64,000 nucleotides of DNA, from contig DBYN01000006.1 of the NCBI GenBank assembly GCA_002310415.1, forward strand, positions 219,249 through 283,248, read 5' to 3'. The stretch is from Alphaproteobacteria bacterium UBA1185. GTDB lineage: Bacteria > Pseudomonadota > Alphaproteobacteria > Rs-D84. The translations under genes and the position numbers were made by a program. Positions 2,533 through 30,316 of the stretch are shown piece by piece (position 1 is the stretch's first letter; the number at the start of each line of letters is the position of its first letter). The notes under the pieces were generated by a model. It had not been told where the DNA came from and searched no databases. It was given only the letters and a program-made list of their open reading frames with translations.

Positions 2533-4287
2533 GTGCGAAAGATAGTAGAAAAATCCATGCTTGGTAAGGTGTGGGTTGTGTCAGATGATTATTATAGAAA
2601 TAGTGATTCGGATGATGCCGAAAGTTTGGTCAAAGGCATTTTGAATTCACGTGGTATTATTGGTGATGACAATATAACCAGATTTCTTAACCCGTCTATC
2701 AGGGAATATATGCCAGATCCATTCGTGTTGAAAAATATGGATGTCGCGGTTGCTGTTATTGCTGATGCTGTTTGTGCGCATGACAAGATCGCTATATACG
2801 GTGATTACGATGTTGATGGAATAACGTCTACGGCGGTCTTTGTAAAATATTTGCGGGCATTGGGGTGCGATGTGTCGTGGCATTTGCCAACTCGCGAAGG
2901 TGAAGGATATGGGTTAAATGTTGATGCTGTAACTAAAATTGCAAATGATGGTGTTAAATTATTGATTACTGTGGATTGTGGTATCAGTGGTATAGAAGAG
3001 GTGGCGTGCGCAAAAAATTTAGGCATGAAAGTTGTTGTTACAGACCACCATTCGCCTGATATTGTTTTACCAGATGCAGATGCAATTGTGAATCCAAAAC
3101 AGGCGGATGATACGTCTGGATTGTGTTTTTTGGCGGGGGTCGGTGTTGCGTTTCTGACTTTGGTTGCATTAAATCGTGAATTGAAAAACAGAAATTTTTT
3201 TAATGATGAAAAAAATCAAATAAATTTATTGAATTATATGGATTTGGTTGCGCTGGGTACAATTTGTGATACGATGCCATTGATTGAATTAAATCGTGCT
3301 TTTGTTGCAACTGGATTAAAAGTAATGGGGTTGCAACAAAATCTTGGGTTAAAGACTTTAATGAATTTGGCTGGGATAAAACATCCATCTGTGTATGCAG
3401 CGGGGTTTGCTTTGGGACCACGTTTAAATGCAGCGGGACGGTTGGATTCTGCGGCACCTGCGTTGGAATTATTGTTAACAGATAATCCTTTGATTGCGAA
3501 TGATTTGGCTAATAAATTGCATAAAATGAATCAAGAAAGAATTGATATTCAAAATGCCATTATGATAGATGCAACAGAAAAAGCGGATTGTTATTGCAAA
3601 GATGGTAAATGCAGTTTATTTGTCTGTGGTGATAATTGGCATGGTGGTGTTATGGGGATTATTGCAGGCCGATTAAAAGATAAATATAATTTACCAACAT
3701 GTGTCGCGACACGTTGTGATGGTATGATAAATGGGTCGGGGCGGTCTATACCCGAAATTGATTTAGGTAAGATAATACATGATGGATTGGCTGCTGGAAT
3801 ATTGTCAGAAGGTGGTGGACATGCAGCAGCAGCAGGTTTTACGTTAAGTGCTGATAAAGAGGTTGAGTTTTGTGCTTTTTTGGAACAGGCTGTTAAAGAG
3901 CAATTAAATGGGGCTTGTCCAGTGCCGGAAATATTTGTGGATGCAGAAATGGATGCATCTGGTGCAAATATGCGGTTGGTTGAAAAATTGGCTGATTTGG
4001 CACCTTTTGGTCAATGTAATCCAGAACCTACATTGGTTTTGTATGGGGCAGTGTTAAAATTTGCAACTGTTATGGGTAATGGTATGCATTTGCGGGGGAT
4101 GGTAAAAACCGGTAATGGTACACAATTGTCTTTTGTTGGATTTAATTTGGTTGGAACACCTGTGGGTGATTTTTTACTGGACGAAGCGCATACAAACACT
4201 AAAATAACAATGTTGGGTAAATTAAAGGAAAACGAATATAATGGTCGCGTTAGTGCGCAATTTGTATTAGAAGACATGGTGATATGA
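2533..4287 (+). CDS. recJ: single-stranded-DNA-specific exonuclease RecJ
   Basis: 584 aa. DHH-family motifs are YGDYDVDG, ITVDCG, VVVTDHH and DHHA1 GGGHAAAAGF. GTG start at 2533; an alternative ATG lies at 2557. Confidence 0.9.
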   Translation: MRKIVEKSMLGKVWVVSDDYYRNSDSDDAESLVKGILNSRGIIGDDNITRFLNPSIREYMPDPFVLKNMDVAVAVIADAVCAHDKIAIYGDYDVDGITSTAVFVKYLRALGCDVSWHLPTREGEGYGLNVDAVTKIANDGVKLLITVDCGISGIEEVACAKNLGMKVVVTDHHSPDIVLPDADAIVNPKQADDTSGLCFLAGVGVAFLTLVALNRELKNRNFFNDEKNQINLLNYMDLVALGTICDTMPLIELNRAFVATGLKVMGLQQNLGLKTLMNLAGIKHPSVYAAGFALGPRLNAAGRLDSAAPALELLLTDNPLIANDLANKLHKMNQERIDIQNAIMIDATEKADCYCKDGKCSLFVCGDNWHGGVMGIIAGRLKDKYNLPTCVATRCDGMINGSGRSIPEIDLGKIIHDGLAAGILSEGGGHAAAAGFTLSADKEVEFCAFLEQAVKEQLNGACPVPEIFVDAEMDASGANMRLVEKLADLAPFGQCNPEPTLVLYGAVLKFATVMGNGMHLRGMVKTGNGTQLSFVGFNLVGTPVGDFLLDEAHTNTKITMLGKLKENEYNGRVSAQFVLEDMVI

Positions 4288-5234
4288 ACGAGAAAATAAA
4301 ACTTTTAATAGAAAAAATTACAAACGCTAAATCAATTGCTATATCGGGACATAAAAATCCAGATGGTGATTCTATTTGTTCTGCGTTGGCTTTGATGCGA
4401 TTGATAGAATTGAATTTTGATAAAACCGCAACGGTTATTTATGATGGAAATATTCCACGCGAATTGGATAATATTCCTTTGCGAAAACAGGCTGTGTTTC
4501 ATGGGCATATTCCAGAAGATTCAAAATATGATTTATATATATTGGTTGATTATGGAACTCGTATTCATTTGGGTGGGGTCGAACGTTTTGTAAATGAGGC
4601 TGAATTCGTTATTGAATTTGACCATCATTTTAATGATGATGTTGTTGGGCAATTATGTTTTGATGATCCAGACAAAGCTGCTGCATCCCAAATAATTTAT
4701 GATGTTGCGAAATCTGCGAATTTAACAATAGATGAAGATGTTAGAAATCTTGTTACATTGGCAATTATTACAGATACTGGTAATTTTAAATTTGTTCGTA
4801 ATGGTGATGTGTTGCGTGATGTTGCTGAATTGGTTGATAATGGTGTAAATATGCCGTATTTGGTAAATCTGTTGCGTAATAAAAGTAAAAAAACTGTATT
4901 AGTGGAATCTGAAACTGTCGCAGGTGCTGAATTTTTTATGCGTGGTCGTTTGGCAATTGCGACAATAAAACAGCCTGATTATAAACGATTGGACGGTCGT
5001 GGTGAATTGGTTTTGAGTTTGTTAGGACAGATTCATGGGGTTGAATATGTTGTGTTATTAAAAGAACAAAAAGAAAATCAAATTGGTGTTTCTATTCGCA
5101 GCAGAAACACCCCGATAAATCATATTGCTGAATCATTGGGTGGTGGTGGGCATTTATGTGCCGCTGGTGCTGTCGTTGCAGATAATATTGAATCTGTACA
5201 TGAAAAAATATTGAACGCGTTCAAGGGGATGTAG
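4284..5234 (+). CDS. DHH/DHHA1 phosphoesterase (NrnA-like oligoribonuclease/pAp phosphatase)
   Basis: 316 aa with motifs GHKNPDGDSICSALAL, EFDHHFND and GGGGHLCAAGA. Overlaps the recJ stop by 4 nt. Confidence 0.8.
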   Translation: MNEKIKLLIEKITNAKSIAISGHKNPDGDSICSALALMRLIELNFDKTATVIYDGNIPRELDNIPLRKQAVFHGHIPEDSKYDLYILVDYGTRIHLGGVERFVNEAEFVIEFDHHFNDDVVGQLCFDDPDKAAASQIIYDVAKSANLTIDEDVRNLVTLAIITDTGNFKFVRNGDVLRDVAELVDNGVNMPYLVNLLRNKSKKTVLVESETVAGAEFFMRGRLAIATIKQPDYKRLDGRGELVLSLLGQIHGVEYVVLLKEQKENQIGVSIRSRNTPINHIAESLGGGGHLCAAGAVVADNIESVHEKILNAFKGM

Positions 5235-5235
5235 A

Positions 5236-5850
5236 ATGAAAAAAATATTTATGATTATTTGTGGAATGTTTATATCTTTGACTGCTGATGCCGCTGTGGA
5301 CAAGACTTTGGTGCAGAACGCAGAAAAATATTTGAATTCAATTGGCGGCTTAAAGGGCTCTTTTGTTCAAATGGCAAATGGAAAAACAGAAAGCGGATTG
5401 TTTTCTATGTTGCGCCCGGGTCGTGTTCGTTTAGATTATAAAAATGCACCAATTCAATTAATTTCAGATGGCAAGGATTTGTATTTTTATGATAAATCTT
5501 TGGATCAAATTACAACTGTTCCTTTGACCAGTACGCCTGCGGGAATTTTGGTTCGTAAAAGAATAGATTTACAAAATTCAGATATTAACGTTTCTGAAAC
5601 TTCAAACGATAAAAAAACGTTTACATTAAAAATGAATTTGCGTAATCAGGAAGGTTTGGGATATATGTCTGTGGTATTTAATAAATCGCCGGTGAAATTA
5701 AATTCTTGGTCTGTGGTTGATGCAACTGGAAATCAAACGGATGTGGTATTTAGTAATTTGAAATCTAAAACAGATTTTGGTAAAAATTATTTTCAATTAT
5801 CTCGTCATAAAACTGTTAGCACAAATGGTGGCGATGATTTTTATGATTAA
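5236..5850 (+). CDS. lolA: outer-membrane lipoprotein carrier protein LolA
   Basis: 204 aa with a signal peptide. LKGSFVQ and RPGRVRLDY motifs and length are typical of LolA. Confidence 0.8.
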   Translation: MKKIFMIICGMFISLTADAAVDKTLVQNAEKYLNSIGGLKGSFVQMANGKTESGLFSMLRPGRVRLDYKNAPIQLISDGKDLYFYDKSLDQITTVPLTSTPAGILVRKRIDLQNSDINVSETSNDKKTFTLKMNLRNQEGLGYMSVVFNKSPVKLNSWSVVDATGNQTDVVFSNLKSKTDFGKNYFQLSRHKTVSTNGGDDFYD

Positions 5851-6149: not shown

Positions 6150-6853
6150 AAATGACGTTAATGCAACATTTGGCGGAATTGCGGCGCAGAATATTGTGGT
6201 GTGTATTGGTGTTTTTATTTGCTTTTGCGTTTGGTTGGATTATTTCGCCATTTGTTGAATCTTTTTTGGTGAATCCGTTGATAAATATATGGCAAGATGC
6301 AACTTTGATTTATACTAAATTGACAGATGGTTTAATGATAAAATTCTCGTTGGCGACATTGGTTGCGTTGATTATCACAATTCCTGTTGTGTTGTGGCAT
6401 ATATGGGCGTATGTTGCGCCGGGTTTGCATAAAAATGAAAAGCAATTATTATTACCAATATTTATACTATCGCCTTTGTTGTTTGTTGTTGGTGCAGCGT
6501 TCGCATTTTATTTTTTGTTTCCTTTTGTGTTCAAATTTTTTTTGGATATCAGTAAAACAAATAATGTTCCTGCGGTTTTGTTGCCCGCAGTAAAGGGATA
6601 CTTGGTTTTTTCTATTGATTTGTTGAAGGTGTTCGGGCTGGCGTTTCAATTACCGCTGATTTTAATAGCGATGAACAAAATAGGGATTTTATCAAAACAG
6701 ACTGCGATTAAGTGTCGCAAATATGTTATAATGTGTATTTTTGTTGCAGCCGCTGTATTGACCCCACCAGATATAGTATCTCAAATTTTATTGGCTATTC
6801 CTATGTTGTTGTTATTTGAAATAAGTTTATTATTTATGCATGATGATGCTTAA
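6146..6853 (+). CDS. tatC: Sec-independent protein translocase TatC
   Basis: 235 aa polytopic membrane protein with N-terminal HLAELRRRIL, typical of TatC. Confidence 0.9.
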   Translation: MKMTLMQHLAELRRRILWCVLVFLFAFAFGWIISPFVESFLVNPLINIWQDATLIYTKLTDGLMIKFSLATLVALIITIPVVLWHIWAYVAPGLHKNEKQLLLPIFILSPLLFVVGAAFAFYFLFPFVFKFFLDISKTNNVPAVLLPAVKGYLVFSIDLLKVFGLAFQLPLILIAMNKIGILSKQTAIKCRKYVIMCIFVAAAVLTPPDIVSQILLAIPMLLLFEISLLFMHDDA

Positions 6854-6892
6854 CATTTTTATTTATATCAATTTTATGATATAATTCTTTGT

Positions 6893-8272
6893 ATGAATAA
6901 AATAAAAAATAGTTTTTTGTTATTGTTGGGTTGTATTGGATTGTTGATTGGTTGTGATTTGCAACCAAAAATTTCATCAATTCCAGATAGTATTGGTGTA
7001 TTTATAGAAAATCGATTTCCTGCATTATTGGCTGACCCAGAAACTCAACCAGAGATATATAATTCTGCGGTGACTGATTATGGTGTATATTCTTCGCCAG
7101 AGTTATATGGTTCATCAAATGTTGATGATTATGTAATGTATTCTAATGTTGATGATTATGTGTTAAAACCTGAACAAAATATGACACCTGTACCAGTTGT
7201 AGACAATAAACAGATTGATGACCAAAAACATGTGGACGATTATATTGTTGTTCCTGTATACAGCAGATTTTCTGAATCAGAAGCAAAATCAGAATTAAAA
7301 AAAGAAAATGTGTCGAATGAAGTTATTGTTGTTGCCAAAGGTGATACATTATATTCTTTGTCTAAAAAATATAATTTGACCGTTGAAGAATTGGCAAAAA
7401 TAAATGATTTAAAATCGCCGTATACATTGTATGTAGGACAAAAATTACAGACAAAAAGTGTCAAAGTAAAACAAGATACGACGATAGACAAAGTTGAAAC
7501 AAAAGAAGTTTCAGAAATTAAAACAGTATCGGATAAAGAGATACGTGTTGTGTTAACAGAAATCGGGGTTGAAAAGGGCGATACATTGTATTCTATATCG
7601 CGGAAATATGAAGTACCTGTTAATGATTTAGCGGTTATTAATAAATTGTCCGCGCCATTTACATTATCTGTTGGACAGAAAATCAGAGTGCCTAAATTAA
7701 ATAAACATTCTGAAACCAGTATTAAACAAACGTCAACAAAACAGCTGGATATAAAGCAAACAAAGGTTGACGATAAATCGACGGTTAAAACAGTAAAACA
7801 ACAAAACCATGTTGCAGAAAAACAAAATGGTACAACAAAGACTAAAATATCATCTGACCCATCAAAACAGTTGCCAAAGATATCTGCGCGTTCCGGAACA
7901 AAATTTTCATGGCCTGTATATGGTAAGATTTTGTCTGCTTATGGGGCTAAAAATAATGGTCTTTTCAATGATGGTATAAATATATCTGCCAAACAAGGAA
8001 CAAATGTCAAAGCAGCGGAAAATGGCGTTGTTGCGTATGCTGGTAATGAAGTCAAAGGAATGGGGAATTTAGTTATAATGCAACACAGTGATGGATGGAT
8101 GACGGTGTATGCGCATTTGGATTCTATGTCTGTTAGACGCGGAAATGCTGTTGGCGTTGGGCAGTCTATTGGTAAAATTGGTATGACTGGCAAAGTTGAT
8201 GAACCACAATTACATTTCGAAATACGCAAAGGAACTAAAGCATATGACCCAGTTGCATATATGAAAAAATAG
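6893..8272 (+). CDS. LysM-domain M23 peptidase lipoprotein (NlpD-like)
   Basis: Lipobox LLIGC. Two LysM repeats (GDTLYSLSKKYNLTVEELAKIN and GDTLYSISRKYEVPVNDLAVIN). The C-terminal M23 motif is GMTGKVDEPQLHFEIRKG. Confidence 0.85.
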   Translation: MNKIKNSFLLLLGCIGLLIGCDLQPKISSIPDSIGVFIENRFPALLADPETQPEIYNSAVTDYGVYSSPELYGSSNVDDYVMYSNVDDYVLKPEQNMTPVPVVDNKQIDDQKHVDDYIVVPVYSRFSESEAKSELKKENVSNEVIVVAKGDTLYSLSKKYNLTVEELAKINDLKSPYTLYVGQKLQTKSVKVKQDTTIDKVETKEVSEIKTVSDKEIRVVLTEIGVEKGDTLYSISRKYEVPVNDLAVINKLSAPFTLSVGQKIRVPKLNKHSETSIKQTSTKQLDIKQTKVDDKSTVKTVKQQNHVAEKQNGTTKTKISSDPSKQLPKISARSGTKFSWPVYGKILSAYGAKNNGLFNDGINISAKQGTNVKAAENGVVAYAGNEVKGMGNLVIMQHSDGWMTVYAHLDSMSVRRGNAVGVGQSIGKIGMTGKVDEPQLHFEIRKGTKAYDPVAYMKK

Positions 8273-9023: not shown

Positions 9024-9099
9024 GGATGCGTAGCTCAGTTGGTAGAGCAACTGACTCTTAATCAGTGGGTCCAGGGTTCGAATCCCTGCGCGTCCACCA
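9024..9099 (+). tRNA. tRNA-Lys (anticodon CTT)
   Basis: 76-nt cloverleaf folded by hand. Acceptor GGATGCG/CGCGTCC, D arm GCTC-AGTTGGTA-GAGC, anticodon arm ACTGA-CTCTTAA-TCAGT, T arm CAGGG-TTCGAAT-CCCTG, encoded CCA. Confidence 0.9.
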
Positions 9100-9105
9100 A
9101 AAATT

Positions 9106-9131
9106 AAAACCACCGTTTTGGTGGTTTTTTT
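9106..9131 (+). terminator. rho-independent terminator after tRNA-Lys
   Basis: Hairpin CCACC-GTTTT-GGTGG (9110-9124) followed by T7. Confidence 0.7.
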
Positions 9132-9135
9132 GCTC

Positions 9136-9164
9136 TTGATGCCACAGATGCTCTATGATACAAT
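9136..9164 (+). promoter_or_regulatory. sigma70-like promoter with extended -10 upstream of the lipoprotein gene
   Basis: TTGATG (9136-9141), 17-nt spacer, TGaTACAAT (9156-9164). A strong RBS AGGAGG lies about 10 nt before ATG 9199. Confidence 0.5.
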
Positions 9165-9198
9165 ATCATTGTGAAAAGAATCAGAAGGAGGAAATATC

Positions 9199-10563
9199 AT
9201 GAAAAAATATCTTGTTTTGACATCTGTGCTGGCTTTAACTGCATGTGGTGGTGGTTCTGGTAGTAGCGGGGCTGGTGCCGATGTAAATACGGTTGTTGTT
9301 CCTGGCGATTTGGCGGGGCGTGTTACTGCAACTGATAATGATGTGATTACAAAAATGAAATCTGAAGTTATTGTGGCATCTAATTCTGATAATCCTTTGT
9401 CACGTAAAGCGACGGTTGAAAAAGATGGTGTAACATTTGCTTCATACAGATTGGAAGATATCCAATTATATGCGGCAGATTTTGCACATACTGATAATGG
9501 TTTTTTACAAATAGGAATGGATGAAAATACTGGACGTATAGAAAATATAACGATGACTGTTGGTGGTACAGGCGCACCTGTTGCACGTGATGGCAATACG
9601 AATCGTTTCTTTGGACCAATTTTTGAATATGTTGAAAATGGCAAAGATCAGGCTGTATACAGAACTGCGAATACGGGGCAAACTGCCGAAGACTTGGCAC
9701 AATTAAAGGCTGATTTGATTGCACAGGGCAAAATACAAGATGGTGGTCATTGGAATATGATAAATGAATATATGGATGTTGTAACGTATGGGCGTGATAT
9801 TGGCAATGGCGAATCGTTGCAATATGCCGATTTTGGACATTTCAATCCTGTATATAAGCAAAAATATAAAAACGTAGATGGTTTATCAAATGACCAAATG
9901 GCTTCGGCGCGTCAAGGTAAAGATTTGGGGCGCGGTTCAGAATTAGATGAAAGAAAAACTGCAGAAGATTTTAATGATGAAATGGCAGCAGAAGATTATC
10001 AATTGTTTGCTGGGGGATATGCAATTAGTGGTGTAAAGTTGGAAAAATCGTTGCAGCCAAATAATAATACTACTTATCGTGGTATGGCAATTGGGCGTTT
10101 GTATACGACTGTGTCTGCGGATGATGGCGTTAATAATGATGTACGTGAAGCAAAAGCGACAGCGGCAGGTTACAGTGCGGATCGTGATATAAACAAAGCC
10201 TTTACAACCAAATCAGCAACAATGACTATTGGGGCAGATGGGACTCAAACACTTTACATGCCGTTTAATACACAAAGTGATAATCCAGACAGCAAGTTTT
10301 ACGATATAACTTTGGTTCAACACAAGGATGGAACACTAGACACCGAATTCACAGGAAATCCAACAGATCCGAAACATAATAAGGGACATGCTTTGGAATA
10401 TATTGTTGAAAATGAAAGTGGTGTTAATTTTGGATATTATGGTGTGAATACGCCATCTGAAGCCGCCGGAACTGCACGTTTGTATTCCGCAGAAGATTTG
10501 GGTGGTGGTGTTCAACGTGAATATGAAGTTCAGGGCGCATACGGTATGAAATTACAACATTAA
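9199..10563 (+). CDS. surface-lipoprotein candidate, TbpB/fHbp/HpuA-like (putative Slam substrate)
   Basis: Lipobox LALTAC followed by a Gly/Ser linker GGGSGSSGAG. The C-terminal region TYRGMAIG...NFGYYGVNTPSEAAGTARLYS...VQGAYGMKLQH resembles the terminal 8-strand barrel signature (GxFYGpxAxExaG...GAFGa) of TbpB-type lipoproteins. Confidence 0.65.
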   Translation: MKKYLVLTSVLALTACGGGSGSSGAGADVNTVVVPGDLAGRVTATDNDVITKMKSEVIVASNSDNPLSRKATVEKDGVTFASYRLEDIQLYAADFAHTDNGFLQIGMDENTGRIENITMTVGGTGAPVARDGNTNRFFGPIFEYVENGKDQAVYRTANTGQTAEDLAQLKADLIAQGKIQDGGHWNMINEYMDVVTYGRDIGNGESLQYADFGHFNPVYKQKYKNVDGLSNDQMASARQGKDLGRGSELDERKTAEDFNDEMAAEDYQLFAGGYAISGVKLEKSLQPNNNTTYRGMAIGRLYTTVSADDGVNNDVREAKATAAGYSADRDINKAFTTKSATMTIGADGTQTLYMPFNTQSDNPDSKFYDITLVQHKDGTLDTEFTGNPTDPKHNKGHALEYIVENESGVNFGYYGVNTPSEAAGTARLYSAEDLGGGVQREYEVQGAYGMKLQH

Positions 10564-10587
10564 TATCCAAGGTGTGTTGTTTTTATT

Positions 10588-10620
10588 AAATTCGGTTCAT
10601 ACTTTTGAACCGAATTTTTA
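10588..10620 (+). terminator. rho-independent terminator
   Basis: AAATTCGGTTC-ATACTTTT-GAACCGAATTT hairpin followed by a T-run. Confidence 0.7.
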
Positions 10621-10694
10621 TATAATTTTATCTTGTTATATCTTGTAAAAATTACTATCATAGGACACAAGTCTTAGTAATGTATGGTATTTTT

Positions 10695-12140
10695 ATGAAA
10701 CGTATGTTTTTATCTTTGTTGTTTGTTATTGTTTCTACGTTTTCTGGTTGGGCGGTCGGATCGGTCAGTGTGCAGAAAACGTCTGATAATTCTGGTGTAA
10801 CGGAAAAAAATGAAAAGCCGGCAAAGCAAGCAAAAAAAACGTCCAAAAAAAACGACAAAAATGGGAAAACAGAAATTACAATGACATCATTAGATGCCGT
10901 TAAATTGGCTGGCAAAATGGTTGAAATGGGTGATTATGAACACGCAACTCAGATTTTAACAAAAATGCCACAAACCAAAAGTTTGCCTGTGGAAATTGAA
11001 CGGTGGTATTTGTTGGCGCAAATGGAACAACGCAAAGGTAATTATGACGAAGCAATCAAAATTTATCGTAAAATATTAGATTCTCAACCAGATTTATCCA
11101 AAATTCGTTATGAATTAGCATTATGTTATATGGCAAAGGAACAATGGTATCGCGCAGATTATCATCTTCGTTTGGCTATGGCTGGAAAAGATATACCTGA
11201 ACCGGTTAAACAACGTATGATGTATTACAGGTATATTGCACGTAAAAACAAAAATTGGAATGTTTGGTTTAATTTTGGCGCTGCACCAGACAATAATATT
11301 AATCAGGCTACGGGCGGTCAAGAATGTATTTTTTATAATGGGTATTTTTATGGATGTGCTGATAACCCTGAACCTGAAAAGGCTGTGGGATATAATTTGT
11401 TGTTGGGCGGAAATTACGAATTTAAATTGTCTGATAATTGGCGTTGGAAGAATGATGCGAATATTTATACTAATGTTTATAATAAACATAAGTATGATGA
11501 TTTGTATTTAGCCGGTTCTACCGGTCCACGTTATGTTTGGGGAAATGGTGATGTTTGGTTGGCTGGTGTTCTAAGTCGGCGTTGGTATGGCTGGGATCGT
11601 TATAATTGGGCGTATGGCGCCAAGATTGATACTAATTATGATTTAACACGTAAATTGTCTTCTGGATTGACTTTGCGTGTAATGAATAATAAGTATGATG
11701 AATATTGGCAATTGTTAAATGGGCAGACATGGACATTTGCACCACGTTTTTCTTATTCCTTTGACGCATCGAAATATGTTGTGTTAAGAGGTGCGATTGA
11801 TCGTGAAACAGCAAAAGCGGATGCATATGCAAATTGGCGATATAATGCTGGATTGGGTTTTGGGGCCGAGTTGTTGTGGGGATTTAGTGTTTATTTAGAG
11901 CCTTCTTTTACATGGGTGAATTATGATGGCGAACGTTATGTTCCAAAAGATGGGGATTTAAAATGGGTTGTTGAAAATGATTTTATTCAACGTTATTCCA
12001 TATCTTTGTCTAATAATAAATTCAGTATTTGGGGTATGGTGCCGACTTTGACGTGTAGTTATACGAAAAAAGATTCTAATATTCACAACCGGCAATATGA
12101 AAAAGCCACTTTGGAATTAACTTTCCAACAAAGATTTTAA
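10695..12140 (+). CDS. Slam-like outer-membrane protein (N-terminal TPR + C-terminal DUF560-type beta-barrel)
   Basis: Signal peptide MKRMFLSLLFVIVSTFSGWA. TPR-like helices (WYLLAQMEQRKGNYDEAIKIYRKILDSQPD, YELALCYMAKEQWYRADYHL). An aromatic/Gly-rich beta-strand region ends SYTKKDSNIHNRQYEKATLELTFQQRF with a terminal Phe. At about 480 aa it matches the size of Neisseria Slam. An alternative start lies at 10680. Confidence 0.7.
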   Translation: MKRMFLSLLFVIVSTFSGWAVGSVSVQKTSDNSGVTEKNEKPAKQAKKTSKKNDKNGKTEITMTSLDAVKLAGKMVEMGDYEHATQILTKMPQTKSLPVEIERWYLLAQMEQRKGNYDEAIKIYRKILDSQPDLSKIRYELALCYMAKEQWYRADYHLRLAMAGKDIPEPVKQRMMYYRYIARKNKNWNVWFNFGAAPDNNINQATGGQECIFYNGYFYGCADNPEPEKAVGYNLLLGGNYEFKLSDNWRWKNDANIYTNVYNKHKYDDLYLAGSTGPRYVWGNGDVWLAGVLSRRWYGWDRYNWAYGAKIDTNYDLTRKLSSGLTLRVMNNKYDEYWQLLNGQTWTFAPRFSYSFDASKYVVLRGAIDRETAKADAYANWRYNAGLGFGAELLWGFSVYLEPSFTWVNYDGERYVPKDGDLKWVVENDFIQRYSISLSNNKFSIWGMVPTLTCSYTKKDSNIHNRQYEKATLELTFQQRF

Positions 12141-13530: not shown

Positions 13531-13660
13531 ATGTTCTATACAGCATATTTACTGGAGTTTATGATTTATATCCTATGGGGATAAGTGCCTATGTAAATGT
13601 CATATATTGTCTGATAGAATATCAATTGTTGAGATTAATCAGCAACAAAAGGAGAAACTT

Positions 13661-14275
13661 ATGAAAAAAGTTATTGCTACATCGATGGCAGTATTATTGG
13701 CAACACCTGCTTTGGCCGGTGGATACAATTATGAACAACAACCAAGTACAGTCTTGGGTTGGGAAATTTTACCGTATGTTGCAGTGCGTGGCGGTGCAAC
13801 ATATAGTAATTTGAATTATAAAATAAACAATATCAAAGAAGATGTTTCGTTAAACTCTTATCAAGTGCGTGCCGCTTTGGGTTTAACAATGGATGATGCT
13901 GCGCGTTTTGAAATTGAAGGTTCTTTCTTTAACAAAGCGTATAAGACCCAGGATTTTGGCACTATCCAAGGTGTAGATGTGTCTGCAAGAAATATAGAAT
14001 TGATGGCTAATACATATATGAATATCGGTCATTTTAATTATATTCAACCATTTGCAGGTTTGGGCGCAGGTTTAGCATTCATAGATACTGGTGCACGTAT
14101 TGCAGGTGTCAGGGAACATAAAGACTCAACAAAATTCTCTGCTATGGGAACTTTGGGTTTGTCAATGCCGTTTGGTTGTTTTGCAGTTGATGTTGCGGCA
14201 CGTTATAATTATGTTGATGTTGCTTCTGGAATGCATAATTTCAGTGGTGATATTGGTGTACGTTATATGTTCTAA
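13661..14275 (+). CDS. small outer-membrane beta-barrel protein (OMP_b-brl / Omp25-Opa-like)
   Basis: ATG 13661 is preceded by GGAG (13651-13654). Signal peptide ...ATPALA, alternating beta-strand pattern, C-terminal GVRYMF. The track ORF starts earlier at 13607. Confidence 0.75.
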   Translation: MKKVIATSMAVLLATPALAGGYNYEQQPSTVLGWEILPYVAVRGGATYSNLNYKINNIKEDVSLNSYQVRAALGLTMDDAARFEIEGSFFNKAYKTQDFGTIQGVDVSARNIELMANTYMNIGHFNYIQPFAGLGAGLAFIDTGARIAGVREHKDSTKFSAMGTLGLSMPFGCFAVDVAARYNYVDVASGMHNFSGDIGVRYMF

Positions 14276-14367: not shown

Positions 14368-15870
14368 ATGAATAGATTTTTGTGTTTTTCAAGATTTGTA
14401 ATATGTATAACTATTTTGAGTTTATCAAATGGTTATGCCGATGATTATTATGTTTCTCAAAACTCTTTTGAAGAAAATATCAATTTGTCTGATGATATGG
14501 TTATTAAAAATTATGGGAATATTAATAACATATATACAAATGGTTATAATCTGCACATATACAATTATGGTTCCATAGGAATAATTCATAATCCAGAAGG
14601 AATTGCTTATGTTCAACAATGTATTCCAAATAACAATGCTTTGAACAAGATTAATTTGGACGGCGGTAATTTTGGGGTTGAAATTGACAATTTGGATGAA
14701 GTAAGTTTGAACACATTAAAATATATTCTGGACGGTGTAGATGGCGCAATAACTGTTACTAATTCGTCAATTGTCATAGATAATTTTGAAGATTGGCAAA
14801 ATTGGGATGCAAATATTAAATTGGATAATACAGATACTTTGGTTATTCTTAACCCAGATACTGTAACGCCGGGCCAGGCGATTAATCATGTTAATGGTCC
14901 AATCAGAATTATTGTCAAAGATTTAGATAAATATTATAAAACAGAACTATCACAAGAAGTTGGTGCAGTTTTAATAGATGTGATCAGAGAAACAGATTAC
15001 ACCAAAGAATTCAAAGATGAACGTGGCGAATTGTTGGATAAGTTAAGAAGTTATAATCCTAATGATTCTTTGTTAGTTGCGTTAGATAGTGCGACCAGTA
15101 GTGAAGCATTACATTATATCATGGATTCGTCTTATCATTTTAATTCAAATATTTTATTAAAGCCGGTTAAAACTGTAACTAATTTTATGTTGTCGGATAA
15201 TAATATAACTGATGATGTATTGTATGCTGGTATATCTGGTTTTTATATTTTTGCAGATAACACCGATGATTATGGAATACATTTATATATGGGAGGAAAA
15301 TATAATGATTCTTATTTTGGTGCGGGCTTTGATTTACATAGTTTTCATTACAAAGATTTGATTAATGATTTTGGCGGATGGATGTATGGGTTTAACGTAA
15401 ATTCTAAAATGTATTTTGATAATCTATGGATTGATGGATTGTTGGGCATATCTTTTGTTAATTTTAATGTAGACGATGTTTTATACAAAGATACAACAAA
15501 AAATAATCCAATGGGATTTTTGTGGTACGGAACATTTGATATTGGTTATGATTATTCTGTAATATCAGATTTTGTTCTAAGCCCGTTTGTTGGTGTGTTT
15601 GGGACGCAATATTTGGTTTTGAATATCGATGATAAAGATTGTAATATTCGTGGTGGTATGGGTGCAAAATATTCTTTTGTTACAGATAATGTGAAATATG
15701 TATACAGCGGAAAAATTGGCGTTGCAGATAATAAAGATGTTTTTGGCGGATTGTCGGTTGGTTTTATATCGGAAATAGACAAGGCCGGTGTTACTGTGGA
15801 ATGTGATTTTTTAAAAACAGAAAACGAGAAAGGTTATAAAATATCAGTTAACGGACATTTAGCATTTTGA
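14368..15870 (+). CDS. autotransporter-like outer-membrane protein
   Basis: 500 aa with a signal peptide. The N-terminal Asn/Gly/Ile-rich repeats (NYGNINNIYTNGYNLHIYNYGSIGII) suggest a beta-helix passenger. A linker (LDSATSSEALHYIMDSSYHFNS) precedes a C-terminal aromatic-rich barrel ending GHLAF. Confidence 0.55.
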   Translation: MNRFLCFSRFVICITILSLSNGYADDYYVSQNSFEENINLSDDMVIKNYGNINNIYTNGYNLHIYNYGSIGIIHNPEGIAYVQQCIPNNNALNKINLDGGNFGVEIDNLDEVSLNTLKYILDGVDGAITVTNSSIVIDNFEDWQNWDANIKLDNTDTLVILNPDTVTPGQAINHVNGPIRIIVKDLDKYYKTELSQEVGAVLIDVIRETDYTKEFKDERGELLDKLRSYNPNDSLLVALDSATSSEALHYIMDSSYHFNSNILLKPVKTVTNFMLSDNNITDDVLYAGISGFYIFADNTDDYGIHLYMGGKYNDSYFGAGFDLHSFHYKDLINDFGGWMYGFNVNSKMYFDNLWIDGLLGISFVNFNVDDVLYKDTTKNNPMGFLWYGTFDIGYDYSVISDFVLSPFVGVFGTQYLVLNIDDKDCNIRGGMGAKYSFVTDNVKYVYSGKIGVADNKDVFGGLSVGFISEIDKAGVTVECDFLKTENEKGYKISVNGHLAF

Positions 15871-27223: not shown

Positions 27224-28858
27224 ATGAAGATGAAAATGCGTTTGAAAATGTTTTTAACGGGTTTGTTGATGATGGGGGCGTTGGCGGGTTGCACTTTGCA
27301 AGAATCTGCCAAGGTGTCGGCATCTGTTGATCAAAACTTTGTAAAAGCATATGAAGCATTTGAAATGGCGAAAAATCCGCGTGCCAAGGTTGCTAGTGGT
27401 GATACGGTTTCTGTATCAGAAGGTGTTTGGTTGGGTAATAAATCTACGGTTTTGGAACATAAAAATACGTTGCCTGCTAAATTTGAAACTGATACAGGAA
27501 TTACGATTTTATTGAACGAGCCAGTAACGTTACAGGTTTTGGCAAATGATATAAATTCTATTACCGGTATTCCTGTCAAGATAGATAACCAGGTCGATTC
27601 GGAAAAGTTAAGAAAGACAGTTGATGTTGCGTATACTGGAAAGTTATCTGGTCTGTTGTCGCAAATTGCAACTGATTTAGATTTGTTGTGGTATTATGAC
27701 AAAGATGCGATTGTATTTTATGAAACAGAAACGCGGACATATACATTATATGCGCTGGGTACGGATGTATCATATCAATCTTCGGTTCAAACAGACGATG
27801 GAAATCAGGTTTCTTTGGAATCCACATTAAAAGAATGGGATGAAGTTGAATCAACAATAAGTTCAATTGTTAATTCATCTAAAAATTCTCAATTTACTGT
27901 TTCACGTAGTTTAGGAACAATCACAGTAACTGCATCGCCATCTGTGTTAAACAGGGTTGCGGAATATATTGCAAAACAGAACAAACGCTTGTCTCAGTTG
28001 GTAACCATAGATGTCAAAGTGTTACAAGTGTCTTTGTCTAATGAATCTGCATTTGGGTTGAATTTGGCGGCTGCGATTAATTCTGCATCTGGATTGAATA
28101 TAGTTGCAAATCCAAAAAATAATTTAGCGACCACAGAAGCAAGTTCTATGAATGTTGCTGTTTTATCTAATACAGTTTCGGCTTTGACAGGTGCAACACA
28201 TGGTGATGGATTAGAAGGTGCGTATACAAACGATCAAATTATGAATGGTTCTATGGCACGTGTGGCGGGAACAAATGCTTTGATAGAGGCTTTGGCAAAA
28301 CAAGGTAAGGTTTCTTTGGTGACAAATGTTGGTGTTACAACACGTAACAATCGTGTTGCACCCGTAACAAATACCAGAACAACTGGATACATAAAACGGT
28401 TTGAATCGCGTAATTTTACAACTGTTGAATCCAGTACGGTTGACCAAGATAATTTGGAAACAGGTTTTTCAATGCAATTGTTGCCTAACGTTTTGGAAAA
28501 CGGCAAGATTTTATTGTTGTTCAAAATGTCTATTCGTGAATTGTTAAGAATGTCAACTCAGACGATTGGTGATCAAATGAAAGTAACACTGCAATTACCA
28601 GAAGTAGAAGAACGTTCGTTTATGCAAGAAGTTATTATGGAATCTGGTCAAATGTTGGTAGTATCTGGATTTGAAAAGCAAAAGAATAATGATACACGTT
28701 ATGGTTTGGGGGATCCTGATTTTATGGCGTTGTCTGGGTCGCGTGAAACAGCAGCATCACGTGAAGTGTTGGTTGTTATTTTGACGCCTCAGGTTTTGGT
28801 TAGCCCGATGGATGCAGAACGTAATATTCAACAACATTGGGGCGCACCATTAAATTAA
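27224..28858 (+). CDS. lipoprotein secretin, type IVb PilN/TcpC-like
   Basis: Lipobox GALAGC. The secretin C-domain features are VTIDVKVLQVSLSNESAFGLNL, ...QMLVVSGFEKQKNND... and GLGDPDFMALSGSRETAASREVLVVILTPQVL. Confidence 0.75.
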   Translation: MKMKMRLKMFLTGLLMMGALAGCTLQESAKVSASVDQNFVKAYEAFEMAKNPRAKVASGDTVSVSEGVWLGNKSTVLEHKNTLPAKFETDTGITILLNEPVTLQVLANDINSITGIPVKIDNQVDSEKLRKTVDVAYTGKLSGLLSQIATDLDLLWYYDKDAIVFYETETRTYTLYALGTDVSYQSSVQTDDGNQVSLESTLKEWDEVESTISSIVNSSKNSQFTVSRSLGTITVTASPSVLNRVAEYIAKQNKRLSQLVTIDVKVLQVSLSNESAFGLNLAAAINSASGLNIVANPKNNLATTEASSMNVAVLSNTVSALTGATHGDGLEGAYTNDQIMNGSMARVAGTNALIEALAKQGKVSLVTNVGVTTRNNRVAPVTNTRTTGYIKRFESRNFTTVESSTVDQDNLETGFSMQLLPNVLENGKILLLFKMSIRELLRMSTQTIGDQMKVTLQLPEVEERSFMQEVIMESGQMLVVSGFEKQKNNDTRYGLGDPDFMALSGSRETAASREVLVVILTPQVLVSPMDAERNIQQHWGAPLN

Positions 28859-28948
28859 AATATAATTATACAAAAACAAAGATGCGCAAAAATTATGAGT
28901 AGGTATGCAAAAGTACATGAACATGCTGGAAATCGCAGAAACCTATAC

Positions 28949-30316
28949 ATGCAATCAAAGCGTTGTCTGATGGTTTTGGTTTTTGTGATGGGGTTGCATA
29001 ATATCGCTTTGGCTGCAAGTTGGGACTATCCATGTGAAGCAGTTAAATGTGGACCTGGATCGTATTTCTCAAGTAGTGACAATAGATGTAAAAAATGCAC
29101 AGAAGTTAAAGATACAGAGTTACAATCAGTTGGTGTAACAAAGGATATGTTGTGGTGTCCAGGGTATATGAGTGATTGTAATGATAAAAAGAATGGTTTA
29201 CATACGTGTGAGTCTTATATAAGAAATTATGATGACAACTATGAATGGTTTTTGGAAAATAATAACACGGACGAAGGTTGGAAAGAATTTACAACAGAAG
29301 TGGCTTGGTCACCCACAGTACAACAAAACCAGGAAAGAGAGGATTATCGTGATGAGGTTGTTGGTGTCAAATATGTTGCAGATGCCCTTAATGATTACAA
29401 AAAGTGTAAATTAACCGAGGTGCATTGTAAACCAGGGTACTATTTGCCAAAAAACACTGATAAATGTGAATTTTGTTCAAATGAATTCAGGAAATATTGT
29501 CCAGGTGGTTGGTATGAAGTAGAACAATCCAAAGATCAAGGCGTGTATGATTGTGATGCTTCAAAAATAACTGGTAGGTATCATACTGCATGTGTGTCTT
29601 GTCCGGATGGTATGCGAGCCAACTCGAATGAGGACAAGTTTATTTGGTATGATGTTATGATTAATGGTTCAAAGGCGGACTCATCAGATAGAGCGTTACG
29701 AAATATAGCTTGTATCAATAATAATGGATATGGTAAACATTATAAAGTTGAGTGTGGTAATGAGTTATCTAGTGACCCTGATTATAACAAGAAAAATGGT
29801 ATTTGGGGGTTGTGTGAAGAAGAAATTGGAGTGGCATCGTTACCTATCCAAAAGCAACATATTGAGATGGATAGAGTATATTTAAATGACAACTCAATCG
29901 TCGGTATAGAAATAAAAACATTCCCTGGTTCTGTGTACTATAACGGTACATATGTAAAATGTGCGGATTATCCAGAATTTGCAAAGGTGGCCAAAGAAGC
30001 ACGCATGTATTGCCCAGGAAATTGGGTAACAAAGGATGCAAATGGCAATTATCCAACCCCATTACAACAAATGAAACAATGCCCACCCAAAAAAGAGCCG
30101 AATGATGATTTATCCGGTTGTGAATGTATGTGGAAAGATAAGGGAGCCACAGAAACACCTGAGGGTGAGTGTATTCATAAAGAATTAAAATTGGGATATA
30201 AAGATTTATATTACGGACCATTTTGCAAAGATGATCCGACATGTCCATTGTTTAAACAATGTTGGACCAAGTTTAATAACAAAGCAGCATACAGAAAATG
30301 TATGGGCTTTGATTAA
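28949..30316 (+). CDS. secreted cysteine-rich protein with furin/TNFR-like repeats
   Basis: Signal peptide MQSKRCLMVLVFVMGLHNIALA from ATG 28949; the track ORF starts at 28895. I count 28 Cys in the mature part. Repeats are KCGPGSYFSSSDNRCKKC, HCKPGYYLPKNTDKCEFC, YCPGGWY, YCPGNWV and WCPGYMSDC. Confidence 0.6.
   Translation: MQSKRCLMVLVFVMGLHNIALAASWDYPCEAVKCGPGSYFSSSDNRCKKCTEVKDTELQSVGVTKDMLWCPGYMSDCNDKKNGLHTCESYIRNYDDNYEWFLENNNTDEGWKEFTTEVAWSPTVQQNQEREDYRDEVVGVKYVADALNDYKKCKLTEVHCKPGYYLPKNTDKCEFCSNEFRKYCPGGWYEVEQSKDQGVYDCDASKITGRYHTACVSCPDGMRANSNEDKFIWYDVMINGSKADSSDRALRNIACINNNGYGKHYKVECGNELSSDPDYNKKNGIWGLCEEEIGVASLPIQKQHIEMDRVYLNDNSIVGIEIKTFPGSVYYNGTYVKCADYPEFAKVAKEARMYCPGNWVTKDANGNYPTPLQQMKQCPPKKEPNDDLSGCECMWKDKGATETPEGECIHKELKLGYKDLYYGPFCKDDPTCPLFKQCWTKFNNKAAYRKCMGFD

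Follow-up and report, generated by a model that had tools for sequence, protein, structure and literature searches.

A type 11 secretion (Slam) gene paired with a predicted lipoprotein cargo gene in a gut alphaproteobacterium, and related loci in Elusimicrobia

Two adjacent genes in the window

A stretch of 64,000 nucleotides from Alphaproteobacteria bacterium UBA1185 (assembly GCA_002310415.1, contig DBYN01000006.1, positions 219,249 to 283,248; hereafter the window) carries on its plus strand a lipoprotein gene followed by a gene for an outer-membrane protein of the Slam family, and the two appear to form a small type 11 secretion module. A preliminary description, made from the letters alone, had taken them for a surface lipoprotein and the translocon that places it on the cell surface, and both open reading frames lie where that description had put them:

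9199-10563, plus strand: lipoprotein gene, predicted Slam cargo; open reading frame of 454 amino acids with no Pfam or NCBIfam model
10695-12140, plus strand: Slam, type 11 secretion outer-membrane protein; 481 amino acids, Pfam SlipAM and TPR_Slam

An alternative ATG upstream of the Slam gene, at 10680, would extend its product to 486 amino acids.

A divergent member of the Slam family

The Slam family is defined by the Pfam models PF04575 (SlipAM/DUF560) and PF24575 (TPR_Slam, with tetratricopeptide repeats, TPR), and every Slam in the survey of Hooda et al. has both TPR and DUF560 domains (PMC5449769). The second product in the window, which had been likened to Slams by its architecture and size, matches SlipAM/DUF560 over the full length of the model (E 3.6e-37; 128.9 bits against a cut-off of 22; residues 188-481 aligned with profile positions 1-288 of 288). 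It also matches TPR_Slam, marginally (35.9 against a cut-off of 35.2), and generic TPR families (TPR_19, ANAPC3 and others) cover residues 72-167. The two domains are placed as follows:

10908-11189, plus strand: periplasmic TPR domain of the Slam, about residues 72-165 (TPR_Slam, TPR_19, ANAPC3)
11256-12137, plus strand: DUF560/SlipAM membrane barrel, residues 188-481, with a C-terminal Phe (Pfam)

Read directly from the translation, the N-terminus MKRMFLSLLFVIVSTFSGWAVG... is hydrophobic and signal-peptide-like and is followed by a Lys-rich stretch, while the C-terminus ...LELTFQQRF ends in the final aromatic residue that is a feature of the outer-membrane beta-signal. A search of 5.8 billion proteins returned 570 relatives, the best 120 of which are at least 61% identical to the window protein and every one of which carries both PF04575 and PF24575. 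Annotated Slams from Novosphingobium, Neisseria gonorrhoeae, Acinetobacter and plasmids of the Roseobacter group share only 22-27% identity with it, and an outgroup-rooted neighbor-joining tree recovers the gut Slams as a monophyletic clade (100/100 bootstraps) on a long stem. Judged by its sequence, the product of 10695-12140 is a true and divergent Slam, all the family features examined being present in it. The gonococcal Slam in this comparison comes from the PLSDB entries NZ_CP119140.1 and NZ_CP119142.1 (L034), 2.17-Mb Neisseria gonorrhoeae 'plasmids' that are evidently chromosomes.

Strict linkage of the lipoprotein and Slam genes

A survey in which each GTDB species was represented by one genome recovered 26 loci with relatives of the lipoprotein, all of them in metagenome-assembled genomes from animal gut or rumen that are labelled either Alphaproteobacteria (including Candidatus Enterousia) or Elusimicrobia (Elusimicrobiaceae, Candidatus Avelusimicrobium). 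At each of the 25 loci with downstream sequence, the lipoprotein gene is followed on the same strand by a Slam of this clade, and the same order is seen in the metagenome contigs L001-L006 and L037-L039. Across loci the Slams are 62-70% identical to the window copy and the lipoproteins 33-62%, so that the Slam is the more conserved partner, as Hooda et al. reported for Slams and their surface lipoproteins (SLPs) in general (PMC5449769). The trees of the two genes are congruent, and besides the Slam no neighbour recurs across lineages, the flanks being occupied by housekeeping genes. This linkage across two phyla, which upholds the proposed pairing, argues more strongly than anything else for a cargo relationship, which we infer from it and from analogy with known systems. 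The gut Alphaproteobacteria among the relatives also agree with the alphaproteobacterial, host-associated background that had been suggested for this genome.

A lipoprotein family without a Pfam model

The lipoprotein begins with MKKYLVLTSVLALTAC-GGGSGSSGAG, in which the lipobox is followed directly by a Gly/Ser tether, and ends in ...VQGAYGMKLQH. Three segments were delimited in it:

9199-9288, plus strand: signal peptide, lipobox L-T-A-C (residues 13-16, Cys16) and Gly/Ser tether (residue 17 to about 30), from the translation
9334-9873, plus strand: N-terminal beta-rich lobe, residues 46-225, from DSSP of the AlphaFold2 model; motifs PIFEYV, GGHWN and LQYADFGHFNP
9985-10560, plus strand: C-terminal beta barrel, residues 263-454; motifs FAGGY, YRGxAIG, FYDI, YYGVNTPSEAAG and AYGMK

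Lipobox and tether had both been read from the sequence earlier, and they prove to be family traits: among 57 relatives A15 and C16 never vary and G17-G19 hardly do, and no orthologue at 13 loci lacks the lipobox. The protein matched no family in Pfam (E <= 1) or NCBIfam, and its 186 close relatives are all without a name or called 'hypothetical'. It is most likely, by its sequence, a member of a cargo family that is new to annotation and has no Pfam model.

Two sets of database matches were examined and set aside. Neurexin-1 LNS domains, found with a broad profile of the family (E 9e-6 for the whole chain), are spurious, as the score sums weak stretches around a '...LtmpF...WYDVtV...' strand motif; the matches of single members to NEAT (E 0.0027) and DOMON (E 0.022) were not reproduced in ten long homologues.

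Distant relatives retain the N-terminus MKK..LTS.LALAACGGGSGG, a conserved module of about 100 amino acids and the C-terminal barrel motifs, and differ in the middle. The main insertion site lies after residue 148 (window 9643-9645), where relatives carry up to 115 additional amino acids (mean 26), and inserts at residue 148/149 account for the homologues of 530-580 amino acids; a second site is the barrel loop after residue 324. The hot spot at 148/149 in the N-lobe is likely to be a variable effector region. The published scheme for such cargoes consists of effector, pedestal and barrel (PMC12282271), and by analogy the window lipoprotein fits a minimal version of it.

The superfamily also includes paralogues in other arrangements. 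A divergent protein of 655 amino acids with a different middle region is encoded directly upstream of a Slam of this clade, and two loci have two cargo-like genes before a single Slam: in L024 the second lipoprotein gene of the tandem (3142-4860) matches the barrel profile with E 1.7e-24, and in L031 the second gene (6668-7786) encodes a distant paralogue of 373 amino acids. Solitary paralogues amid housekeeping genes occur in L041/L042 (2522-4108, P0187) and L044/L045 (4001-5512, P0169). A Slam gene is missing from the 4 kb around these, which suggests that a single Slam may handle several substrates encoded apart from it. Neisseria Slam1 is known to serve substrates encoded far from it. Within the window, neither a paralogue of the lipoprotein nor a second Slam was found.

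Predicted fold and remote kinship to TbpB-type barrels

The preliminary description had likened the C-terminus of the lipoprotein to the barrels of TbpB and fHbp. AlphaFold2, given an alignment of 57 sequences, models the whole protein with a predicted local distance difference test score (pLDDT) of 87.8 and a predicted template-modelling score (pTM) of 0.84: residues 1-30 are disordered, about 46-225 form the N-lobe, 226-262 a variable linker and 263-454 a barrel of long strands. The C-terminal domain modelled alone reaches pLDDT 90.4 and has 8-9 long strands by DSSP. When the whole model was compared with the Protein Data Bank (PDB) by Foldseek, the C-lobe of TbpB came first (5kkx_B, E 1.6e-4, probability 1.0), followed by full-length TbpBs; the barrel alone matched PsbO barrels, the TbpB C-lobe (probability 0.98), the C-domain of NHBA (0.89) and LbpB.

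Comparison of family profiles points in the same direction. The superfamily profile A3 is a broad barrel profile of the window family and the distant members found by an exhaustive HMMER search (325 superfamily proteins at E <= 1e-3), and A4 consists of 21 aligned PF01298 (TbpB_B_D) proteins from among the homologues of a Novosphingobium pLA3 lipoprotein, 33 of 34 of which carry PF01298. Aligned with hhalign, A3 and A4 score 30.4 (P 1.2e-3), and under relaxed settings (low mact) the alignment is colinear across the whole barrel, pairing FAGGY...P..mtFtGkAiG with FVTGyETP..PtsGsATFnGfveG, WYDV with WNxL, and YYG.N.PsEA.G with FYGP.AEELG. The narrower profile A1 aligns with A4 over 32 columns on the first barrel strands (P 9.6e-5). 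The native score exceeds that of a reversed target (15.1) and of all 200 shuffles (100 column shuffles, maximum 18.3; 100 block shuffles, mean 14.3, standard deviation 2.3, maximum 23.1), and unrelated beta-barrel families (OMP_b-brl and the Slam clade) score 10.6-17.7. A comparison of the profile with a single TbpB_B_D protein was non-significant (probability 0.3%), the signal arising from family against family alone.

Several observations weigh against this kinship, and with it against the reading of the protein as a typical Slam cargo. The profile check proposed at the outset returned no TbpB_B_D (PF01298) or FHBP_C (PF08794) match for the protein or for any of its 57 relatives even at E <= 10, nor did ten distant superfamily members match either model; three PDB sequence-profile searches with the progressively broader profiles A1, A2 and A3 found no TbpB, fHbp, HpuA or NHBA. 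The Foldseek TM-scores to TbpB are low (0.23-0.37), PsbO barrels score equal to or above TbpB when the domain is taken in isolation, and the hhalign probabilities (19% for A3 and 58% for A1) stay under the usual acceptance level. The lipoprotein is not, by sequence, a member of Pfam TbpB_B_D as defined. The resemblance of its barrel motifs to that family is nevertheless probably real and due to distant common ancestry. As regards structure, the modelled fold class is probably right and identity with the TbpB barrel is not proven, because all TM-scores are low (at most 0.37). Of the TbpB/fHbp-like barrel first proposed, the predicted barrel, the low-scoring structural matches to TbpB and a weak profile signal above all shuffles have stood, and the expected Pfam and PDB sequence-profile matches have not.

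Expression signals and residence in the genome

The region upstream of the lipoprotein gene and the gap between the two genes contain the following elements:

9024-9099, plus strand: tRNA-Lys(ctt), conserved upstream neighbour of the module (ARAGORN)
9106-9128, plus strand: hairpin with T run after tRNA-Lys, terminator-like (terminator scan; -11.6 kcal/mol, z = -3.07)
9136-9164, plus strand: sigma-70-like promoter match TTGATG-17 nt-TGaTACAAT with extended -10 (9/12 matches, TG present)
9186-9191, plus strand: Shine-Dalgarno AGGAGG, 7 nt before the ATG of the lipoprotein gene (read from the sequence)
10588-10622, plus strand: intergenic 12-bp hairpin with U tract, terminator or attenuator between cargo and Slam (sequence; fold energy)

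The lipoprotein gene had been credited with a promoter, ribosome-binding site and terminator of its own. The AGGAGG and the hairpin with its U tract are both present, the latter folding at -15.4 kcal/mol (z = -5.75), a value that none of 200 shuffles equals; the simple terminator scan had passed over it, as its T-run rule is unmet there. The promoter counts only as a consensus match, because such sites are not enriched in this AT-rich region (20 against 14.5 +/- 3 expected by chance). On the 3' side of the Slam gene a fold-energy check gave no comparable hairpin.

The position directly after tRNA-Lys, also pointed out earlier, recurs in relatives: in L001, L016, L022 and L029 the lipoprotein gene is immediately preceded by this tRNA gene, which is inverted in L008, and the order tRNA-Lys, cargo, Slam is common to the window and at least five other species. 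L001 shares a wider synteny, LolA-TatA-TatC-LysM/M23-[pair]-OMP. An island integrated at tRNA-Lys was considered for the window and rejected, since the window contains neither an att-like copy of the tRNA 3' end nor flanking repeats of any significance. GC content at third codon positions (GC3) is 0.25 and 0.29 for the two genes and 0.21-0.36 for their neighbours, and the raised GC of the pair stems from codon positions 1 and 2, i.e. from amino-acid composition. Given GC3 values like those of the neighbours, the lack of an att-like repeat, and the shared order and L001 synteny, the pair looks resident in this genome rather than recently acquired.

Probable lateral spread to Elusimicrobia

In both gene trees the Elusimicrobial copies stand beside one alphaproteobacterial subgroup, and an outgroup-rooted tree nests them within alphaproteobacterial diversity (76/100 bootstraps). 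Slam identity across the two phyla is 63-66%, against 22-27% to other proteobacterial Slams; on these sequence comparisons the distribution therefore requires that the pair moved horizontally between phyla as a unit. Mis-binned contigs were rejected as the source of the Elusimicrobial copies: these come from five independent bins, their RefSeq neighbours are Candidatus Avelusimicrobium, and their GC is 0.43-0.49 against 0.36-0.40 in the window. RefSeq entries of Candidatus Avelusimicrobium name the Slam a 'surface lipoprotein assembly modifier' and the lipoprotein a 'hypothetical protein'. In Elusimicrobia the two genes almost abut, at a distance of 3-4 nt.

One of these loci offers a candidate vehicle. 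In Candidatus Avelusimicrobium caledoniensis (L004, 5934-15396) the pair lies in a stretch that encodes, in order, a zeta toxin, a hypothetical protein, the lipoprotein, the Slam, an HTH_17 protein, hypotheticals, a further HTH_17 protein and a large serine recombinase, with tRNA-Glu next in line. With a GC3 of 0.42-0.49, lower than that of the core genes around it (0.53-0.55), it is a candidate integrative element carrying the type 11 module.

Slams have been described as proteobacterial (PMC5449769, PMC8406197, PMC12282271), and a limited literature search, which is no proof of novelty, found nothing linking Elusimicrobia with DUF560 or the type 11 secretion system (T11SS). The presence of the same cassette in Elusimicrobia, seen in the related loci and not in the window, is the more notable point. 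It provides evidence of a module moving outside its usual phylum and, if true, would mean that type 11 secretion is not restricted to Proteobacteria, contrary to its description in the literature.

A model for the module and its alternatives

Taken together, we regard the locus as a self-contained two-gene type 11 secretion (Slam) module that displays the lipoprotein as its cargo, with a probability of about three in four. By this model the 454-amino-acid lipoprotein would leave the cytoplasm through Sec, receive its lipid at Cys16 and travel along the Lol pathway to the outer membrane. The downstream-encoded Slam would then take over, its TPR domain and presumed 14-strand-type DUF560 barrel recognising the still-unfolded C-terminal barrel of the cargo; it would thread the cargo through the DUF560 barrel and release the lipid anchor into the outer leaflet, leaving the protein anchored at the cell surface on its flexible Gly/Ser tether. 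This order of transport steps is taken from the reconstitution of TbpB with Slam1 (PMC9090332). The intergenic hairpin could allow the cargo to be made in excess over the translocon, and once exposed, the N-terminal lobe, variable insert included, would bind a gut ligand. The interpretation first put forward is essentially right, and the observation behind it is confirmed. On the other side it must be counted that surface exposure and its dependence on the Slam are deduced from gene linkage and analogy, and that the receptor survey described next extended over the 64-kb window and the 10-kb flanks of 13 relatives.

The nature of the ligand is where the main alternative arises. Neither a TonB-dependent receptor nor TonB or a heme oxygenase was found among the flanking genes or the largest open reading frames of the window, consistent with the earlier remark that no such receptor is adjacent, and the 25 commonest Pfam families among 88 flanking genes of 13 related loci include no TonB-dependent receptor, TonB or heme gene. 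As the pair comes without such a receptor, the ligand is more likely, by analogy, to be a host or luminal component used in colonisation than a classical iron carrier, and we favour a role in colonisation or host interaction like that of NilC, fHbp or PmSLP. The lipoprotein could instead be a nutrient co-receptor or hemophore-like binder of heme, metal or a vitamin that feeds a distal TonB-dependent transporter, as in the pairs TbpB/LbpB-TbpA/LbpA and HphA-HphR, a possibility that touches the ligand only and leaves Slam-dependent display unchanged. His, Trp and Tyr motifs of the N-lobe (GGHWN, DFGHFNP) are indeed kept across the two phyla, and the solitary paralogues and the distantly encoded substrates of Neisseria Slam1 also speak for it. 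Many characterised type 11 cargoes bind metal or heme, and cluster 1 Slams often lie beside TonB or heme genes (PMC12282271). The gene surveys above argue against this alternative, as does the failure of the marginal NEAT and DOMON matches to recur in other members, and we consider it unlikely, if still the most serious competitor.

It is more doubtful that the lipoprotein faces the periplasm and assists or plugs the DUF560 barrel, much as LptE does with LptD, in a stable outer-membrane complex with some other task. Strict linkage would fit any obligate two-protein complex, and the nearly abutting Elusimicrobial genes would suit it as well; however, the disordered tether, the cargo-like soluble barrel, an insert of up to 115 amino acids and the faster evolution of the lipoprotein are hallmarks of displayed cargo (PMC5449769, PMC12282271). 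The tandem second cargo genes and solitary paralogues also sit badly with a structural subunit in 1:1 ratio, and the hairpin between the two genes of the window points to their being expressed at different levels. Release of the protein into the medium as a soluble cargo, like hemophilin/HphA, is less probable still: type 11 systems do secrete unlipidated soluble cargo (PMC8406197, PMC12282271), but in the 57 relatives the lipobox Cys and the residues around it never change, and every orthologue of the 13 loci keeps them, which would be unexpected if lipidation were dispensable. Finally, that an ordinary periplasmic lipoprotein lies here by coincidence, with the true cargo of the Slam encoded elsewhere, could be argued from its lack of a recognised Pfam cargo domain, yet is scarcely credible given congruent gene trees and the same order and strand at 25 of 25 loci in Alphaproteobacteria and Elusimicrobia with otherwise different neighbours.

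The displayed-cargo reading may be extended to the family as a whole, where we see the balance as even. In this extended form, a deep-branching, gut-confined Slam clade and a Pfam-less cargo superfamily with a conserved N-module, a swappable insert and a TbpB-like barrel would together make up a mobile, self-sufficient colonisation cassette, which crossed from Enterousia-like Alphaproteobacteria into Elusimicrobia and whose cargo, with a non-iron ligand, would be a major surface determinant of these uncultured lineages.

Comparison with characterised Slam systems

The mechanism and the kind of system are already known; what the window adds to them is a divergent Slam with a new, presumed cargo family. 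The Neisseria systems (Slam1 with TbpB, LbpB and fHbp; Slam2 with HpuA) likewise combine a TPR N-domain and a DUF560 barrel in one outer-membrane protein, and their cargoes are tethered lipoproteins in which a beta 'handle' lobe at the N-terminus precedes a barrel of about 8 strands at the C-terminus, an arrangement predicted for the window protein. As in HpuA/Slam2, the cargo gene adjoins the Slam gene (PMC5449769) and the Slam is the more conserved of the two. The window Slam, however, is only about 27% identical to the gonococcal one, its cargo matches neither PF01298 nor PF08794 and has a single lobe where TbpB has two, no TonB-dependent receptor partner was found by the window pair, and the host belongs to an uncultured gut commensal lineage rather than to the mucosal pathogens.

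A closer organizational parallel is found in another alphaproteobacterium, Novosphingobium pentaromativorans, whose plasmid pLA3 encodes a cargo lipoprotein (JI59_RS19935), annotated as a 'transferrin-binding protein-like solute binding protein', directly upstream of a same-strand Slam (JI59_RS19930). Among the named proteins of the plasmid collection, this Slam matches the window Slam best (E 1e-38), and the barrel family of its cargo is the one that gives the colinear hhalign match. In contrast to the window protein, the pLA3 cargo is a true PF01298 member (E 4.7e-9); the two Slams are 26% identical, the N-terminal lobes have no detectable similarity and the pLA3 host is a free-living sediment bacterium.

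Xenorhabdus NilB/NilC and Pasteurella PmSlam/PmSLP are likewise two-gene modules with a host-interaction cargo and no TonB-dependent receptor (PMC9100927, PMC12080921, PMC5449769); no sequence relationship to them was detected, and they serve by analogy as the favoured functional model. Hemophilin, HphA and HrpC share the handle, the C-terminal 8-strand barrel and Slam-dependent export (PMC8560813, PMC12282271), but these are soluble heme-binding proteins without a lipobox, and their genes are linked to TonB-dependent receptors, whereas the window protein has an invariant lipobox and no such neighbours.

Type 11 cargo is predicted by means of the Pfam domains TbpB_B_D and lipoprotein C (PMC12282271), and work on Slam systems has dealt almost exclusively with proteobacterial pathogens. 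Such domain-based screens miss the whole cargo family, with its 186 close and 325 wider relatives, which accompanies a clade of more than 570 Slams in uncultured animal-gut bacteria. The locus thereby offers a defined two-gene unit and a candidate surface antigen or colonisation factor of gut Alphaproteobacteria.

Other genes in the window

A gene for the periplasmic lipoprotein carrier of the Lol pathway lies 3.3 kb upstream of the lipoprotein gene:

5236-5850, plus strand: LolA, periplasmic lipoprotein carrier (Pfam LolA, E 1.7e-26)

Just downstream of the module, 13607-14275 (plus strand) encodes a small 8-strand-type OMP_b-brl protein, the L001 orthologue of which is Opacity-like; such proteins account for 5 of the 88 flanking genes surveyed at the related loci. 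It is followed by an open reading frame of 500 amino acids without a Pfam match (14368-15870, plus strand), which ends in ...VNGHLAF with an outer-membrane-protein-like C-terminal Phe and may encode an unannotated outer-membrane or autotransporter-like protein. Open reading frames of 517-520 amino acids, matched by size and position only, occupy the corresponding place in L001 (12415-13977), L016 (9582-11138) and L029 (9567-11117). Farther downstream, a secretin-family protein (PF00263) is encoded at 27224-28858 (plus strand) and adjoins an open reading frame without a Pfam match at 28895-30316; the region 27224-30316 may be a pilus or secretion locus.

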